IMG/VR virus record: IMGVR_UViG_3300013094_000183
Span: 1-30,633 of that record
DNA length: 30,633 bases
Source: a virus
Lineage: Duplodnaviria; Caudoviricetes
Reading direction: 5' to 3' (one strand)
Shown: one piece after another, positions 11,501-25,310 of the stretch
Layout of the letters: every line of letters begins with the position of its first letter
How positions within the stretch are numbered: the first letter of the stretch is position 1
The notes under the pieces: generated by a model
What the model saw: the letters and a program-made list of their open reading frames with translations, nothing else
Databases searched by the model: none
Told to the model about the DNA's origin: nothing
Made by a program: the position numbers and the translations under genes

Positions 11501-11734
11501 AACTTAGCTCGTATCAATCACGATACTGAAGAAATGCAAAATATGCGAGAAAAGTTAGTTGACGTCGGTAATAAACACACAGGTCTTGGTATCAATGCTG
11601 GTACAGTTTCTGAAATACTTTCAAGGTCAAAAACTGAATTTGATAAAGCTACTAAAGAGATGGTGCATGGTGTCAGATACTCTAAAAAGATGCTAAAAGA
11701 GATTAAATCTGACTCTGCTGAATACGAAAATTGA
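5504..11734 (+). CDS. Large internal virion protein / polyvalent-type protein with zincin-like metallopeptidase motif
   Basis: 2076 aa, last gene of the structural arm; G-x-F-x-P-x-x-N-x-I...VLLHEPGHA...HEFAAEALSNPQF (HExxH plus downstream E); Pro/Gln-rich linker; helical C-terminal region with a hydrophobic stretch. Confidence 0.7.
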   Translation: MPKVTIPGVGVVNYPDSMSDKDIMSHAQGLQTKANTPLLDPKDLPAKELFKGAFSRGIEGLKGTAFDLIPALAGSVTGHDQYAQEQMKEYQDRMAAAEAENPTAYNKLSDIKGIGDLPGFVAETAGMLAPDALSFIAGTGVGTTLGKYAARKGAEKVLEKSALEYAAKKGLTGEAADTAVEAFKNRAIGQNVISNATEHGASIGTNLGLTSTSMAINVPDVLQSVYQDTGELHPGIALTVGPIVGALDTIFPAHIVKQLGSTGKKILAKELLDKSTVVPTTWKKAFGKELLKDVSMESLTEGTQQALQVAASQMAGDKKKFFDPNNIDSIIMASIQGAIGAGSMGAIPSAIQAKGIKAQSEQDAAAQKAQAALDAQKAQPPAPPLALGYTSPPAMQQVETDQSKRPIEVSPGITYDPTTGLHTIQQQEEQPGRTVNPLMNMPQPNPELVGQGAPNVELNPAQQEMFDTTAFEKRQPSIDSALAGPPEAPTEFSSKLDAETLKGTGLKPQSGFFKQLLDKDMSKPKQQAAVADILINVRKNPNLSDSTKNAVEAVAMQAFGALAKQQEMFTPLGNVRKDASYAGVQPTVQSKPISTTNRTGIQVPNESVPNQPAGGVTAPQQRRVAPVTEPTAQSAVRETVQPSALSQEDQDALQAELQAEMAGQQPTQQMGTTPQAATTPAQESIVRTNQGIPQVAGVAQSQPVAKTSATQTLAPALIPHSAKDILKQAEQEKARREKLAEEGNPEFQELGRAGTGEFDVSKGYMGFAKEDVKNIDDSIAVTDLLRGATLTPIAKAAKTYFGKMPRLVDNLINVAFDIAFNPPRFRVEGESNREAKFFQGMNGASARLAADWIHKNLSPDTDKQFRDFIRGFERARDTTNDTQLMQLIMSGVSGTKAKVTDETIQSYIDAMSADIANARNREARRAVSGKTKKILESSVITLAHPLHPAVIAAIHNGDLQSALKLMAASSDPFIAKTAARFAAVNLNTKINVVDGLIDESGRPVPGLFHPETNTILIDSITGMNGHVLLHEPGHAVTSHVLDNPNHPLTRQLQQVLDKIKDSLDTAYGATDVHEFAAEALSNPQFVGKLQSINPNGGVHTAWDMFARAVINFFRRMVGLESRPLASAYDEVDRILSGIISPSPEYRDAGALYAPTIAKDQQIFTGVNKLVRSVPVLNENQKAHLADGIKRAGKLTRSGIFSMLPTHALGEVAESVFPGLGMKFHNLINDRSGYQNDLNNKTDAVVTEAKAAIKAKPEQQKTFNAIANESTVYEVDPTKPMSEYKDPEDIKVWKDLNSRYNKLDKVWKDLYVTMRNAYKEMYEEVKKSINERIEETALDAGTKKRVRDAIMAKLSEKGMLDPYFALGREGEHWLAFNYKDKNGQMQRTQEAYKTDYERAARMEELQKLGATEVEPYEKVSAMNYRRAPTGSFMNSILQIMDTNGVPEKAVEETMRLFLATLPETAFAQSLQKRKGTPGYMDDTIGVFERKMRNTAHQVANMRFNPQLTNVVDEMQQKTVAAGVAGKGNQLEKDYVTEFEKHLKYVLNPTKRDLGSILASTAFTYTLGFNLSSAVVNMANVPMIVAPYLKGQYASYNVAGAIGNASKIFIGSGTNAEMEVLGANGRTTKTKVMPSILNYAKDSAIGRKYAKLIEIANKRGQLNRSQLYELINGDTRTGLLSKFNAMSGWMFHHGERMNREVTMIASFDLEMQKLAKDIKSGKLTQEEAETQAANNAVYTAELTNGSIAAASAPRVAQNPIGKLLFMYKRYGVSMYYMMFKTAKEAIDVNLPADQRKAAWRQLGGIVGMSALMAGAQGIPLFGLASMVYALFCDDDDDDLDNVTRKGLGEFLYKGPLEYFTNLSIASRITLNDLIVRDTKGGTSATTFTQQIGQAMGGPAFGIMDRIQRGYSKIAEGHLERGIEDMLPSALSNPLKGYRYATEGTNTLRGDPITGDINAWNVAAQAFGFAPADYTRQIELNAKEKGVDKYVVQKVSKLKQRYNLARINHDTEEMQNMREKLVDVGNKHTGLGINAGTVSEILSRSKTEFDKATKEMVHGVRYSKKMLKEIKSDSAEYEN

Positions 11735-18892: not shown

Positions 18893-19561
18893 TTAGTTCC
18901 TTCCATTATGAGCGCACTCTAATACTGGGCAATACTTCTTACATAACCCACTTGGTCTAGGATTCCATACATTATTGGCATAGGAAAACTTCATCCGATT
19001 ATGTTCTGCAATCCATTTAACCCACATCTTATCCTGTTTTTCAGCATCATACGAATCTTTTATGAAGTTCTTAGAAATAACAAAAAGAAGCCCACCTTTG
19101 ACCTTTTTGACTTCGGGAAAAAACTTAAAAATAGCTAGTGCCATTAGTTCCAGTTGGTCAGTATCGGCATACTTAGCCGATTTGCCAGTCTTATAGTCTA
19201 CGCAACGTGCTTCATCCCCATTGATAATCAACAAGTCAGCAATACCTCGCCACCAAACCTTTGGGTCTTTGAATCCGCAGGGTTCTAGGTTTTCTGTCAA
19301 CCCCATTTCAAACTCACAATGTTTTATACCCTCTAGTTGTTTTAAACTATCTAATGTAGATTTAACAAAACTAAACTGTGGAGGTATTGGTACGTCATCC
19401 CGTACGTAATGTTCAGCTGCCGAATGAAACTCTTTACCATATAAGATAGCATCTGTTGGTGGCTCGGTTACATCTTTAGCTACACGTAAGTGGTAAAACT
19501 TTTTAGGGCATTGGTCGTATAGCTTAATGCTAGAGTATGACCATGCAGGTATCTTAGTCAA
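18893..19561 (-). CDS. PD-(D/E)XK exonuclease, Cas4/RecB-like
   Basis: WSYSS..CP, G..FH, E, RGIADL, VDYKTGK, QLELMA and C-terminal C-x3-C-x4-C (Fe-S type); TTG start preceded by GAGGTG from the array repeat. Confidence 0.85.
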   Translation of the reverse strand: MTKIPAWSYSSIKLYDQCPKKFYHLRVAKDVTEPPTDAILYGKEFHSAAEHYVRDDVPIPPQFSFVKSTLDSLKQLEGIKHCEFEMGLTENLEPCGFKDPKVWWRGIADLLIINGDEARCVDYKTGKSAKYADTDQLELMALAIFKFFPEVKKVKGGLLFVISKNFIKDSYDAEKQDKMWVKWIAEHNRMKFSYANNVWNPRPSGLCKKYCPVLECAHNGRN

Positions 19562-19718
19562 AGTCCACCTCTATTTCATAATCTTTTTGTTGGTTTAAAA
19601 TTTGTTGCGCTAAAGACTCAAGATAGGGTGGCACAATAAGTTTAGTAGGTTTAGTAGGTTTAGAAACCAAATCTATAAATATTATCTCAAGTGAAGATTC
19701 ATTTAACTCGCTATTCAT
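19554..19718 (-). CDS. Mini-protein D (54 aa): capsid-fragment-like segment + YEIEVDFD tag
   Basis: Hand translation, not in ORF track: MNSELNESSLEIIFIDLVSKPTKPTKLIVPPYLESLAQQILNQQKDYEIEVDFD*; RBS GAGGTG; overlaps both neighbours. Confidence 0.75.
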   Translation of the reverse strand: MNSELNESSLEIIFIDLVSKPTKPTKLIVPPYLESLAQQILNQQKDYEIEVDFD

Positions 19719-19881
19719 CAAAGTCCACCTCTACTATGTAACTAGGTTTATTCGCATCTCTAAATGCGCCGCTAAGTATTCGCCCTATTATTGCTTCTTT
19801 AGTCTGCTCCATTGCTTCCGCTAAATGTTGAGTATATCGCTTGCGCATTTCTTCATGCACCTTCGGGTCTATCGTGTCCAT
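19711..19881 (-). CDS. Mini-protein C (56 aa): capsid long-helix-like segment + YIVEVDFD tag
   Basis: Hand translation, not in ORF track: MDTIDPKVHEEMRKRYTQHLAEAMEQTKEAIIGRILSGAFRDANKPSYIVEVDFDE*; RBS AAGGT. Confidence 0.75.
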   Translation of the reverse strand: MDTIDPKVHEEMRKRYTQHLAEAMEQTKEAIIGRILSGAFRDANKPSYIVEVDFDE

Positions 19882-20038
19882 CAAAATCTACCTTTGTTAT
19901 GTATGGTTCATCTACAAAAATTTCACCAGCAAACTTTTTAGTTTTTGGCATGTTAGCAAGTTGAGTTGCATACTCTTCTGCTGTTATTCCAAGTTTCTTA
20001 GCTAAGTTCATTTGTACTGCACTTATTCTTATCTTCAT
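19853..20038 (-). CDS. Mini-protein B (61 aa): scaffold C-terminus-like segment + YITKVDFD tag
   Basis: MKIRISAVQMNLAKKLGITAEEYATQLANMPKTKKFAGEIFVDEPYITKVDFDGHDRPEGA*; ATG 20038 within the repeat, RBS GGAGGT. Confidence 0.75.
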   Translation of the reverse strand: MKIRISAVQMNLAKKLGITAEEYATQLANMPKTKKFAGEIFVDEPYITKVDFDGHDRPEGA

Positions 20039-20171
20039 CAAAATCTACCTCCACTATATAGTCTTCTTTATTAAATATTTCAGCACCAAATTTACTGTAC
20101 TCAAGGTCAAATAGCGCATTAAGTCCGGGTAATAGTTCTTTCAATAAGTCTTTTCTAGATATCATTATCAT
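19998..20171 (-). CDS. Mini-protein A (57 aa): capsid N-terminus-like segment + YIVEVDFD tag
   Basis: Hand translation, not in ORF track: MIMISRKDLLKELLPGLNALFDLEYSKFGAEIFNKEDYIVEVDFDEDKNKCSTNELS*; ATGA overlap with upstream gene, RBS GGAG; alternative start 20165. Confidence 0.8.
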   Translation of the reverse strand: MIMISRKDLLKELLPGLNALFDLEYSKFGAEIFNKEDYIVEVDFDEDKNKCSTNELS

Positions 20172-20470
20172 TTAACTCCATGATACTTTTCAACCCACCT
20201 AGCAAAGTCCTTGCCTTTGCCAATACTAATCCAAGCTTTCTTTAATGTTTCATCAGGTATTGGTTTAGATTGAACAGCACAACGTTTCTCTACCTTTTTT
20301 GTAGCTTCATAAGTAGCGGCACTTCTACATACGTACCATGCACTTTTCCATGCTTGCCACATAGGATCAGAGTTAATGTCTTCATTTTCGTTGTCAATCC
20401 AATGGTTATTCATAGCCCATCGTAAAAAAGACGCTAAACACTTAGCATCGGGTGAACCTTTAGCGTTCAT
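20168..20470 (-). CDS. Hypothetical protein, distant member of the EPVAW cassette family
   Basis: 100 aa; F..W...WQAW motif; C-terminal KPIPDE...DFARWVEKYHGVK echoes LTDEEI...FARAI of the neighbours. Confidence 0.7.
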   Translation of the reverse strand: MNAKGSPDAKCLASFLRWAMNNHWIDNENEDINSDPMWQAWKSAWYVCRSAATYEATKKVEKRCAVQSKPIPDETLKKAWISIGKGKDFARWVEKYHGVK

Positions 20471-20700
20471 TTCTCTTGTGCCTTTCTTAGTATTGCTCTA
20501 GCAAATTCAAGTTCAGGCTGTCCACTCCAATCCATCTCCGCCCATAAATCTTGTATTTCCTCATCTGTTAGTGTCTTTGCTGGATGGGTGTAGAGTGGAA
20601 TGTTGTAATCAGAACAATCACCACCTTTACCTGATTTCTTAAATTTATCTGTAATAACATCATCATCTTTACACATCCACGCTACTGGTTCATTGTTCAT
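20467..20700 (-). CDS. EPVAW-family small protein, copy 3
   Basis: MNNEPVAWM...IPLYTHPAKTLTDEEI...FARAILRKAQEK. Confidence 0.8.
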   Translation of the reverse strand: MNNEPVAWMCKDDDVITDKFKKSGKGGDCSDYNIPLYTHPAKTLTDEEIQDLWAEMDWSGQPELEFARAILRKAQEK

Positions 20701-20876
20701 TTCTCTTGTGCCTTTAAAAATTTAAAAGTTAAGCCAAAACACTTGTAAACATTGATGTAACCATTTCTTTCGCTAAACAATGGCTGATGGTGCTTTGTTT
20801 GTTTTACCCATAAGCCATAGCCAAAAAATCTAAACCAAAATCCATGACCAATATTGCAGTAATAAAAAGGTTTCAT
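20697..20876 (-). CDS. Small aromatic-rich protein (59 aa) carrying the KAQEK end block
   Basis: Hand translation, not in ORF track: MKPFYYCNIGHGFWFRFFGYGLWVKQTKHHQPLFSERNGYINVYKCFGLTFKFLKAQEK*; ATGA overlaps at both ends. Confidence 0.75.
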   Translation of the reverse strand: MKPFYYCNIGHGFWFRFFGYGLWVKQTKHHQPLFSERNGYINVYKCFGLTFKFLKAQEK

Positions 20877-21130
20877 TTCTCTTGTGCCTTTCTTAGTATT
20901 TCGTATGCAAACTCAGTAAATTTAATTTCATCTACCTGACCATTTTTATCTAATTCGTAATACTTTCCAGCCGCCCATACTGCATGAATTTCTCCTATGC
21001 TAAGTTTCTTTGCTGGATGGGTGTAGAGTGGAATACAAGGTTGTTTAATATCAAAAGATATGTTTAATGCTGCACCCAAGCTAGTAAAAAGCACACCATC
21101 TACCATCCATGCTACTGGTTCATTGTTCAT
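20873..21130 (-). CDS. EPVAW-family small protein, copy 2
   Basis: MNNEPVAWM...IPLYTHPAK...FAYEILRKAQEK. Confidence 0.8.
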   Translation of the reverse strand: MNNEPVAWMVDGVLFTSLGAALNISFDIKQPCIPLYTHPAKKLSIGEIHAVWAAGKYYELDKNGQVDEIKFTEFAYEILRKAQEK

Positions 21131-21366
21131 TTATCCTGTGCCTTTCTTAGTATTGCTCTAGCAAAAGCCTTTTGTTTCATCCAAGGTGTGTTGCCATGCG
21201 AATGACTCCAGCAATAATCTATTTCCTCATCTGTTAGTGTCTTTGCTGGATTGGTATAGAGTGGAATCCATGTGCCTTCAAGATGGTCAATCACTTGTAA
21301 ATTAATTAACTTTGGCTTTCGGTCTTCCAAGCCCAACAACATCCATGCTACTGGTTCATTGTTCAT
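21127..21366 (-). CDS. EPVAW-family small protein, copy 1
   Basis: MNNEPVAWM...IPLYTNPAKTLTDEEI...FARAILRKAQDK. Confidence 0.8.
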   Translation of the reverse strand: MNNEPVAWMLLGLEDRKPKLINLQVIDHLEGTWIPLYTNPAKTLTDEEIDYCWSHSHGNTPWMKQKAFARAILRKAQDK

Positions 21367-21397
21367 TTGTAATCCCAGCTAGTTCATTTGCGTTCAT
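21356..21397 (-). pseudogene. 13-codon remnant ORF MNANELAGITNEQ*
   Basis: Starts in TAATG overlap with the polymerase stop and ends inside the first EPVAW gene; looks like a deleted cassette. Confidence 0.4.
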
Positions 21398-23229
21398 TAG
21401 CAGTCTCCATATGATTTACCAAACCCACTCTCACAGTTAACAGGTAATCCATCAGCCCACTCCGGTGTCCAACGCATACAATCTTCAATATATGCTTGGG
21501 CTTCTTCAACTTCTGTTTCCGGCACAATACAAGCAACGGCATCATGCACAGTCAGTACTACCCTGTAACGCTTAGCTATACGAATCATCTGCTCACCAAT
21601 AATGCAACGTGCCAATGCTTGGCAAACATTCTCAATAACTTTACCACCATAAATCTTATTCCAACCATAACGGGTCTTATACTGATATTGAGTTTTACCA
21701 TCTTCTTTGACTGAAACTAGCTGGTCATAACGCATTAACAAGCCGCTTGGTAAACGTATTCCACGCTCCTCTGGGGCCAGATTCAATACACCATTTTTAC
21801 CCAAAGATGTTGTCATACCCTTAGCCATTGCTTCAAGCGCTATCTGGGCTTCTCGCCATAGCGCAGTAATGTACGGATATGTTTCTCTGTAAATCGTGAT
21901 GATATGACGGGCTTCATCTTCCGTAACTTCCACATCGAAAGTCTTAAGCTGTGCTTTGAATTTCTGAGCCCCCATGCCGTAGCCACATCCGAGAATTGTA
22001 GTCTTGCCGACGAATCTTTCCTCTTTTGTAATTTCATCTGCACTCTTACCATATATAGCCGAAGCCATGATCTTGTATACATCCTCGTGCCTTTCAAACG
22101 CTTCAACCAAATCATTCTGCCCCGCCAACCATGCCAACACACGTGCCTCAATTTGACTTGAATCGGCATCAATAATCATGTAGCCCTCGGGTGCAATGAT
22201 GGCTTTTTTTAGCTTACCTGCATTATCTCCACGACTAGGCAAGTTCTGCAAGTTCAAGCTATCGCTACCACCCCACCGCCCTGTATGAGCCGCATAATAT
22301 TTAAGAGGAACTGGCATCAAACCACGTTTAGAGATTCCAATAAATCGTTCAGTCCTAGTTTCTTCTAAAGTAGATTTAGCCCCAAGGCGAGCCGCTACTA
22401 AAGCCTGTACTCTTACATCAGGATGTTCAGACAAAATCTTAAACTCCTCGTCGTTCTTAGCTAACGCAAGGGCTTCTTTACCTGTCTTCAAACTAGTCTT
22501 CATCGGTGGCACAACACCAAGTAACTTTAATAGTTCAGCAAACTTCTGATTGCTCATTAGTTCTTCACGGCTAGTAATACCAGCTTCTATTAACAACTTA
22601 GCTTTTGCCGCCCTTACTGTGTCATAGTGCTGTTCAAGTAAAGTTAAATCTAAATCTAATTTCGGTTCAATAAACATACGTAGAGTAAGATCAATCAACT
22701 TCATCTCACCTTTAGGAAATCCATTTTTAACCATAGCATTAAATAGCTTATAGGTTAACTCCACATCATTAACACAATAATCACCATATCTATTAAGTTC
22801 TTCTTCGGTAAAGTCCACACGATTCTTCCCGGATGCGGCGATGACTTCATCACCCTTAACTCCTAGTTTGTATCTTTCAGTTAGTGCCGCAAGCGATGCA
22901 CTTGATTCAACACCATGAATCCCTCGACCCATGCACATCGTATCGGCATATGCTTTAGCGGTAATACCAAACTTCTCAGACATAATGAAGCCATCAAACA
23001 TACAGTTATGAGCAAGCATCATTGACTCTTTCCAAGGAAAAGTCTTAAGGTAATCCGCTATTTGTTTGTGCGTACCACTCGCCCACTCAGTCTCACCACC
23101 ATTAACCTTAATGGCTACACCGATTACTTCAAAACGGTCACTACGTACATACTCTTCAGTTGTCATCTTAGACAGACTAAAGCTAGACTTCTCATAGAAA
23201 GTCTCAAAGTCAATCGTTATTAGATTCAC
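21397..23229 (-). CDS. polA: DNA polymerase, family A, with 3'-5' exonuclease domain
   Basis: ExoI IDFET, ExoII HNCMFD, ExoIII YCVNDV; TGRW, NLQNLP, motif A DSSQIEAR, motif B RFVGKTTILGCGYG, motif C VHDA; GTG start after GAGGAG. Confidence 0.93.
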   Translation of the reverse strand: MNLITIDFETFYEKSSFSLSKMTTEEYVRSDRFEVIGVAIKVNGGETEWASGTHKQIADYLKTFPWKESMMLAHNCMFDGFIMSEKFGITAKAYADTMCMGRGIHGVESSASLAALTERYKLGVKGDEVIAASGKNRVDFTEEELNRYGDYCVNDVELTYKLFNAMVKNGFPKGEMKLIDLTLRMFIEPKLDLDLTLLEQHYDTVRAAKAKLLIEAGITSREELMSNQKFAELLKLLGVVPPMKTSLKTGKEALALAKNDEEFKILSEHPDVRVQALVAARLGAKSTLEETRTERFIGISKRGLMPVPLKYYAAHTGRWGGSDSLNLQNLPSRGDNAGKLKKAIIAPEGYMIIDADSSQIEARVLAWLAGQNDLVEAFERHEDVYKIMASAIYGKSADEITKEERFVGKTTILGCGYGMGAQKFKAQLKTFDVEVTEDEARHIITIYRETYPYITALWREAQIALEAMAKGMTTSLGKNGVLNLAPEERGIRLPSGLLMRYDQLVSVKEDGKTQYQYKTRYGWNKIYGGKVIENVCQALARCIIGEQMIRIAKRYRVVLTVHDAVACIVPETEVEEAQAYIEDCMRWTPEWADGLPVNCESGFGKSYGDC

Positions 23230-24545: not shown

Positions 24546-25310
24546 TTATATTCCTTTTAAAATGTTGGGGTTAATCTCCCCTATATTATCCAAGTTCCTG
24601 CCTGCATAGTCATTATTTAGTAGAACATGTTGCATTGTGGCAATCCTTGCACTCCTCTTGCAGTCTGACTTAACTACTATCCAAGGGTTATCCTCTGATG
24701 TGTATTTAAGTATGCTCCGTTCTGCATGGGTATATTCATCCCACTTATCCTGACTTACCCTATCAATCGGGGATAACTTACCTAATTTCAAAGGGTTGCT
24801 TTCCCTTTCTTTAAACCGCCGTTCCTGCTCTTTTTTACTAACGTCTAACCAAAACTTAATAAGGCATATGCCACTTTCTTGCCACATCTCTTCCATTGTG
24901 TAACATTGGCTATAGAAAATAGCAACCTCGTCGGTTGTGGCAAAACCCATGACTCTCTCAACAGTTGCTCGGTTATACCAAGACCTATCCCATAGGGTAA
25001 CTTCTCCTGTACGTGGTAGTTCCTTGATAAACCGTTGCCAATACCATTGCATACGTTCTTGCTCGGTAGGTTTGTCCAATGCTACGACTCGGGCGGACTT
25101 TGGATTCATATGTTCCATAAATCGTTTAATCGTACCGCCCTTGCCTGCACCATCTCGTCCCTCAAAAACCACCATATGCTTCTGACCAGTATCTTTGACG
25201 TGGTGTTGCCACTTCAATAGTTCTACTTGCAAAGCATACTTCTTAGTATCAAATTCCTTTTGGGACATAAGATTCCTAGGTGATTCCTCGGTTTGATCAA
25301 TCGTGCTCAC
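24546..25310 (-). CDS. ppk2: Polyphosphate kinase 2 (single-domain)
   Basis: LQVELLKWQ, FEGRDGAGKGGTIKR (Walker A), KPTEQE..QWYWQRF, DRSWYNR (Walker B), IKFWL.VS..EQ..RF, KLSP.D lid, PW.VV.SD.K..AR. Confidence 0.93.
   Translation of the reverse strand: MSTIDQTEESPRNLMSQKEFDTKKYALQVELLKWQHHVKDTGQKHMVVFEGRDGAGKGGTIKRFMEHMNPKSARVVALDKPTEQERMQWYWQRFIKELPRTGEVTLWDRSWYNRATVERVMGFATTDEVAIFYSQCYTMEEMWQESGICLIKFWLDVSKKEQERRFKERESNPLKLGKLSPIDRVSQDKWDEYTHAERSILKYTSEDNPWIVVKSDCKRSARIATMQHVLLNNDYAGRNLDNIGEINPNILKGI

Follow-up and report, generated by a model that had tools for sequence, protein, structure and literature searches.

The window, the whole stretch of DNA analysed here, is a 30.6-kb virus record that is 47% complete. 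Its plus strand carries the last part of the virion arm, ending at 11734, and its minus strand the replication arm (primase, helicase, exonuclease and family A polymerase). Between the polymerase and the exonuclease lie four small overlapping genes, each consisting of a piece of a head protein (the bait) and a common eight-residue tag (the handle), arranged as follows.

21397..23229, minus strand: family A DNA polymerase, upstream anchor of the variable locus (phrog_17)
19998..20171, minus strand: mini-gene A, 57 aa; copy of the major capsid protein's (MCP's) N-arm helix (~3-30), linker, tag and 12-aa tail
20037..20060, minus strand: tag 1, YIVEVDFD codons, containing the RBS and start of B
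19853..20038, minus strand: mini-gene B, 61 aa; copy of 26 C-terminal residues of the scaffold, linker, tag and 8-aa tail
19880..19903, minus strand: tag 2, YITKVDFD codons, containing the RBS and start of C
19711..19881, minus strand: mini-gene C, 56 aa; copy of the MCP spine helix (~92-130) and tag
19717..19740, minus strand: tag 3, YIVEVDFD codons, containing the RBS and start of D; site of the crossover that deleted D in L004
19554..19718, minus strand: mini-gene D, 54 aa; copy of MCP 163-212 (helix-strand-helix of the A-domain, by HK97 topology) lacking eight internal residues, and tag
19557..19580, minus strand: tag 4, YEIEVDFD codons, containing the RBS and TTG start of the exonuclease
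18893..19561, minus strand: PD-(D/E)XK exonuclease, fixed downstream anchor of the array (PF12705, phrog_69)

A sequence-only reading of this DNA had reported four intact, overlapping ORFs of 54-61 aa about 8 kb from the structural arm and on the opposite strand, and all four were found on the minus strand, 7.8 kb from the end of the plus-strand arm. The shared tag was also recovered, as YIVEVDFD in A and C, YITKVDFD in B and YEIEVDFD in D; it is followed by 12 residues in A and 8 in B, and is thus not C-terminal in these two, while the scaffold motif of B starts at residue 2. Two details of the earlier description need amending. Each gene does have an RBS and start, as had been stated, but those of B, C, D and the exonuclease sit within the tag of the preceding gene; and the cargos, given as unrelated, are not wholly so in the case of A and B, because these have a longer 58-nt repeat (71%) in common. 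The tag DNA itself is a 27-nt direct repeat present in four copies, 157-163 nt apart. A promoter scan returned 18 sites, fewer than in shuffled sequences (34.9).

A longer record, G001, has the same coordinates as the window and is identical to it across the 1,633-base overlap checked. Its further genes are those for terminase, portal, GroES and scaffold, plus the two genes preceding the capsid gene, before which it stops; the window record/G001 encodes its own polymerase, terminase, portal and scaffold. MCP comparisons were made with close relatives because the phage's own MCP gene lies on neither record, using sequences from two complete genomes: G006 (66,194 bp, terminal repeats, 182 ORFs), with 68-80% nucleotide identity over long blocks, and G010 (65,394 bp), which carries cassettes together with an intact MCP. 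GroES is encoded beside the scaffold in these phages. MCP matches in GTDB genomes fell in bins of unrelated phyla, so that no host was identified. An ORF between GroES and scaffold (G001:C1:41383-41832, plus strand), which we take to be HNH-like from its motif, is missing at that place in G006, and the early arm of the window includes a polyphosphate kinase 2 gene (24546-25310, minus strand; PF03976, E=4e-82).

When A, C and D were compared with the 182 ORFs of G006, the best match of each was the MCP (scores 113, 64 and 65; MCP residues ~3-47, ~92-130 and ~163-212, respectively), while that of B was the scaffold C-terminus (score 67), with 0/2000 shuffles reaching the score in each case. Profile-profile comparison with 74 MCPs gave E=1.9e-19 for A, 4.8e-14 for C and 7.1e-7 for D, and B matched the phage's own scaffold on G001 with the same score of 67 (0/2000 shuffles). 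These results bear out the proposed resemblance of A, C and D to three MCP regions in N-to-C order and of B to the scaffold C-terminus. Pfam and PHROGs scans of the four ORFs gave sub-threshold matches only, for D to phrog_371 (E=0.041) and PF10124 (E=0.052) and for B to phrog_28737 (E=0.012), with nothing relevant for A and C; an ESM Atlas search with C gave no usable match and a PDB sequence search with the MCP a single irrelevant one (E=0.068).

The source of the baits is an HK97-fold MCP (PF25209/PF10124, Mu gpT-like) and a scaffold (phrog_28737) of the types also carried by the named phages HTVC023P, HTVC027P, DSL-LC04 and Pag-Yong1. In contrast to these source proteins, the mini-genes keep just 26-50 residues, differ at invariant positions and are encoded away from the head module. 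A, C and D are homologous in sequence to the HK97-fold MCP family, but are single elements of 54-57 aa in the replication arm, rather than the full-length fold (~300 aa; N-arm, E-loop, P and A domains) in a head module. An AlphaFold model of the G006 MCP from 74 sequences (pLDDT 86.5), used instead of an earlier one from 33 near-identical sequences (pLDDT 34), matches HK97-fold capsids (387 hits at E<=0.001; HK97 itself 2e-11). On this model, with elements named after standard HK97 topology, A corresponds to the first helix (5-26) in the N-arm, C to the long spine helix (99-127), and D to a helix-strand-helix of the A-domain (167-210) minus eight residues.

Exonuclease and tag-pattern searches found arrays in 6/36, 17/19, 6/14 and 9/49 loci, and DNA-pattern matches without an array (2/19, 8/14 and 40/49) were dropped. 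Thirteen distinct arrays of 1-6 cassettes were obtained, all located between polymerase and exonuclease and varying in number and content, and the 32 cassettes analysed are all open frames with a tag (32/32). On an exonuclease tree of 22 rows (L017, with no parsed exonuclease, was left out) four well-supported sister groups differ in cassette content: ABCD versus ABC, A versus AC, C versus none (L116 versus G006, a clean indel) and two cassettes versus none (L005 versus L006/L008/L010). G006, although a complete close relative, is without any cassette. Chimeric cassettes combine a C front or a B front with a D back, and in L080 D comes first and A last, unlike the order in the window. D-like genes are present in L080, L083 and L090, and L090 has the one B homologue, which is diverged. 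Pieces of the C-terminus of an uncharacterised gene after the scaffold have also been recruited (0/1000 shuffles in 4/33 genes); several cargos in L068, L080 and L083 have no assignment, and portal matches are weak. Protein searches returned short relatives for 15/15 candidates with A and relatives for 5/6 with D, the latter all near-identical or chimeric. Cassettes have been gained, lost and fused among relatives, and the locus is a recombination-shuffled array of mini-genes, each a head-protein bait with a common eight-residue handle.

Just upstream of the array (window 20467-21366, minus strand) is a second tandem family of four small genes, which have start (NEPVAW) and/or end (RKAQEK-type) modules in common, present as direct repeats of 42-60 nt. 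L002, L003 and L004, which are near-identical and have the same neighbours, each carry one different member of this family, which is therefore another recombination-shuffled array. G011 has two more small MCP-excerpt genes outside its array (G011:C1:20946-21369, minus strand; E-loop region 53-70 and C-terminal 285-301), with weak tag-like strands (4.7-7.4 bits). In the near-identical phages L116 and L124 the single C cassette (L116:2021-2194 and L124:2250-2420) differs only over the ~20 codons that separate the bait core from the tag, as if a segment had been replaced.

In all 19 internal junctions (19/19; scanned from offset 17 onward) the start codon of the following gene is at tag offset 19 or 22. 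GAGGT is present in 26/32 tags and TTG at a fixed place in 25/32, and L004 equals the window minus D with the join falling within a tag. Because the tag doubles as translation-initiation site and recombination point, the locus is a shufflable cassette array. Besides these two uses, the tag is conserved codon by codon as a peptide. Across 30 unique tags, which are not independent of one another, pN/pS was 0.34 in the mini-gene frame versus 0.84 and 1.64 in the other frames, and 0.19 in the RBS-spacer codon; codon 1 is Y, H or W in 30/30, encoded by TAY, CAY and TGG. At the 14 positions not set by the RBS or start, entropy was 1.51 in third codon positions versus 0.74 elsewhere (8/2002 splits), and the same test on the 22 tags not picked by DNA pattern gave 10/2002 splits. 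Six tags without GAGGT still show the alternating peptide pattern, and tags are followed by 0-18 variable residues. The tags were found by peptide pattern, which missed that of the third cassette of L090, not among the 32. A tag-profile scan of G001 (21,141 windows) gave scores above 20 bits for just the four array genes, the next being 6.8.

Since four bait-less relatives (L006, L008, L010 and L011) have the same RBS-start core upstream of the exonuclease, the second half of the tag probably arose from the exonuclease start region. At the array site these four have an unrelated gene of ~147 aa, which ends in the core without the aromatic first residue. Among 98,388 windows the best tag-profile match was the N-terminal strand of the HTVC027P portal (11.2 bits), a weak candidate for the origin of the tag; scaffold N-termini scored 5.7-6.1, compared with 15.6-29.8 for real tags and 10.5 for chance hits. 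MCP 35-47, a further candidate, aligns to the tag, yet several A genes retain residues 33-35 separately upstream of it, and the alignment between tagged genes and the tail of the gene after the scaffold covers the linker only. Derivation from an MCP strand near residue 270 was rejected (profile score -2.9), and homogenisation of tags within arrays was not significant (318/5000 permutations). The tag may also resemble the C-terminal tail of bacterial DnaK, another candidate for its origin. C-terminal degron or adaptor tails of the ssrA/SspB type must end at a free C-terminus, a position that the tag, with its 0-18 following residues, does not have.

The spine-helix bait is found with other handles as well. 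A profile of nine C genes searched against 1.84 billion representatives gave 111 hits, of which 39 reach the tag end of the profile; 38 are tagged proteins of 49-89 residues, counted as cluster representatives at the 50% level and including representatives of the inputs. In nine other hits (9/111) the same helix lies behind a twin-arginine-like leader, which in the Pfam TAT_signal search scored E 5e-5 to 0.096 across the nine genes, with one (1/9) passing the cut-off. Genes with Tat-like leaders are L167:4998-5240, L198:1252-1632, P0179, P0191, P0199, P0206, P0221, P0222, P0229, P0231 and P0243, and one such bait gene sits in a complete phage that has its own MCP of the same family. Occurrence of the same bait behind a different leader means that bait and handle are separable modules. 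L167 has another gene with a twin-arginine-like leader two ORFs downstream. P0162 may have a third handle: where the tag would be, its spine-helix bait is followed by a different C-terminal module of ~40 residues. A search for its locus confirmed 0/51 stretches.

With tags excluded, pooled pN and pS were 0.20 and 0.70 for A cargos (36 pairs of 9) and 0.38 and 0.69 for C cargos (45 pairs of 10), giving ratios of ~0.28 and ~0.55 against 0.16 for the MCP and 0.15 for the exonuclease as controls, these ratios being biased by local alignment and saturation and the pairs not independent. Baits A and C are under purifying selection, constrained yet freer than the capsid. The single B pair, with 8 non-synonymous and 3 synonymous differences, is too little to demonstrate selection. 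Several residues that are almost invariant in the capsid have been replaced: Q7 (65/65 MCPs) is D, E or N in 13/14 A genes and G21 (65/65 MCPs) is kept in 5/14, while R112 (64/65 MCPs) is kept in 4/39 tagged C genes and K121 (64/65 MCPs) has become L, I, V or M in 28/29 aligned tagged C genes and 9/9 Tat-type genes, and is hydrophobic in both families. A mostly hydrophobic helical stripe (Y106, L110, A111, M114, T117, K118) is retained in C baits. Residues 1-35 of the MCP are the same in G010, a carrier of cassettes, and in G006, a non-carrier.

Decay of a capsid or scaffold gene after duplication, or neutral debris left by recombination, might account for A, C and D in N-to-C order, as in the window, and baits that diverge faster than the MCP. 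However, neither frameshifts nor stops were found among the 32 cassettes, pN/pS of A and C is below 1, peptides persist with synonymous sites near saturation, and tagged C-type genes number 38 representatives even at the 50% level. The fragments are also not colinear, given the different order in L080 and the scaffold piece between capsid pieces. Decay, which we consider hardly credible, is already largely refuted, and the alignments, purifying selection on A and C, 13 arrays and intact MCP in a carrier uphold the earlier view of a maintained system.

Bacterial immunity is known to be set off by capsid proteins, which a phage cannot easily change. CapRel (PMC9712102) and Thoeris (PMC12578639) are reported to be triggered by capsid protein, and a review ties scaffold and MCP mutations to evasion of CBASS (PMC13728456). 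We would give an even chance to the reading that the array products are decoys that occupy the host's anti-phage sensors for capsid or scaffold protein at a time when genuine head proteins have yet to be synthesised. Translation of the mini-genes would be coupled in series with that of the replication operon and would precede that of the late genes. The baits would keep one binding face, having lost residues needed for capsid building or sensor activation, and the tag, a predicted acidic beta-strand from its alternating pattern, would give the bait a destination, or avidity through a common partner or self-binding. Cassette content would track the sensors of different host strains. In favour of decoys, the baits derive from MCP and scaffold types that the phage group itself has, and the genes are chained to an early replication gene; residues essential to the capsid have been dropped, the handle is exchangeable, and the MCP N-arm of the carrier G010 shows no change towards self-immunity. 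Content differences in four sister groups are as might be expected of a conflict locus. Against this, the bait set reads as a list of assembly interfaces: A and B correspond to the two partners in the contact between capsid and scaffold whose structure is reported for phage 80alpha (PMC5644958), and the uncharacterised gene after the scaffold has contributed pieces too. In C, the conserved stripe is possibly hidden from a sensor, because it may be buried in the folded MCP, and some MCP triggers are described in the review as needing oligomerisation (PMC13728456), which a lone peptide lacks.

The same list of interfaces (N-arm helix, spine helix, A-domain, scaffold tail), and burial of the C stripe, would suit dominant-negative poisons of procapsid assembly in co-infecting relatives, with A sequestering scaffold, B blocking scaffold sites on the MCP, C and D inserting into folding MCP and the tag routing captured protein to disposal. 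A scaffold-tail mimic can compete for capsid protein, as reported for SaPI CpmB (PMC5644958), and, in a target family so large and so well conserved (E<=1e-20 for all 8000 candidates scored), one poison would reach many rivals. We nevertheless regard poisoning, the main rival, as unlikely: the unchanged N-arm of the carrier MCP (G010 versus G006) means that there is no visible self-immunity change, which a poison would need, and that it would also strike the carrier unless timing protects it, and the baits have invariant capsid residues replaced. Distinctly less probable are self-regulators of head morphogenesis, which would delay nucleation, buffer premature MCP and scaffold or tune chaperonin use, with a tag that binds whatever partner is bound by the acidic N-terminal strands of portal and scaffold. 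Own-type baits, the GroES gene beside the scaffold and the HTVC027P portal strand as top tag-profile match all fit this, but the portal and scaffold scores are far under those of real tags and near chance, the complete close relative G006 has no cassettes, and content turns over fast between sister phages, unlike a core regulator.

It could also be that the baits function while the tag serves as a DNA module only, each insertion bringing along a copy of the RBS and start of the exonuclease, with the encoded peptide incidental, an account that we rate as similarly improbable. The recurrent GAGGT, TTG and start positions, the same RBS-start core in relatives without baits and the variable tails after the tag all agree with it. 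Set against these are the third codon positions, about twice as variable at the 14 unfixed positions, the aromatic or histidine first residue reached through different codons, and the alternating pattern of the six tags that lack GAGGT. Of the three functions that had been proposed (decoys, procapsid poisons, and adaptors linking head proteins to a partner through the tag), the evidence leans to decoys; translation, partners and function are all things that we infer.

DSAD1, the anti-DSR2 protein of SPbeta phages, is described as mimicking a virion protein (the tail tube) and filling the sensor pocket without activation (PMC10973363), the mode proposed here for the decoys, and the mini-genes are likewise optional accessory genes with a patchy distribution among relatives. 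SaPI1 CpmB is reported as a small protein that bears a version of the scaffold C-terminal motif and competes for the capsid N-arm (PMC5644958). B has the same anatomy and carries such a motif copy, and by analogy the scaffold tail would bind capsid in this phage group too. CpmB, however, is satellite-encoded, has a dimerisation domain and is built into capsids, changing their size (PMC5644958), whereas B has neither satellite origin nor an N-terminal dimerisation domain, being phage-encoded, in the replication arm and among capsid-derived siblings. The nearest published idea is the proposal for ankyrin-repeat proteins of Bodo saltans virus (PMC5871332), described as an expanding array in which fragments of the virus's own essential proteins are joined to a common module, as proposed decoys. 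That system differs in belonging to a eukaryotic giant virus, with enzyme fragments as baits and a large ankyrin domain as handle, and its decoy role is a proposal there too (PMC5871332). A literature search, mostly outside subscription journals, found no description of genes such as those of the array. Relative to the literature searched the design is new, its function being one that we infer.

The known escapes from capsid sensing are point mutations or dedicated inhibitors, to which an array of excerpts from the phage's own proteins, under selection and open to shuffling, would add a third route. More tentatively, and at somewhat less than an even chance, these phages may maintain a collection of head-protein excerpts of their own that can be recombined, each with a handle that is at once peptide, RBS and crossover point, as a programmable set of decoys against capsid sensors. 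If true, 'bait plus handle' would be a general class of counter-defence, with the destination of the captured sensor set by the handle, and the baits would map epitopes recognised by wild bacteria. Peptides of 50-70 residues make two questions testable, namely what parts of the capsid surface are sensed by hosts and by what means phages conceal a trigger that they cannot do without. If the mini-genes are instead poisons, they would be naturally occurring inhibitors of head assembly with a broad reach, directed at a phage family that, with at least 8000 MCP clusters, is among the largest in these databases. Under either reading, the triple-use tag is an unusual gene architecture.
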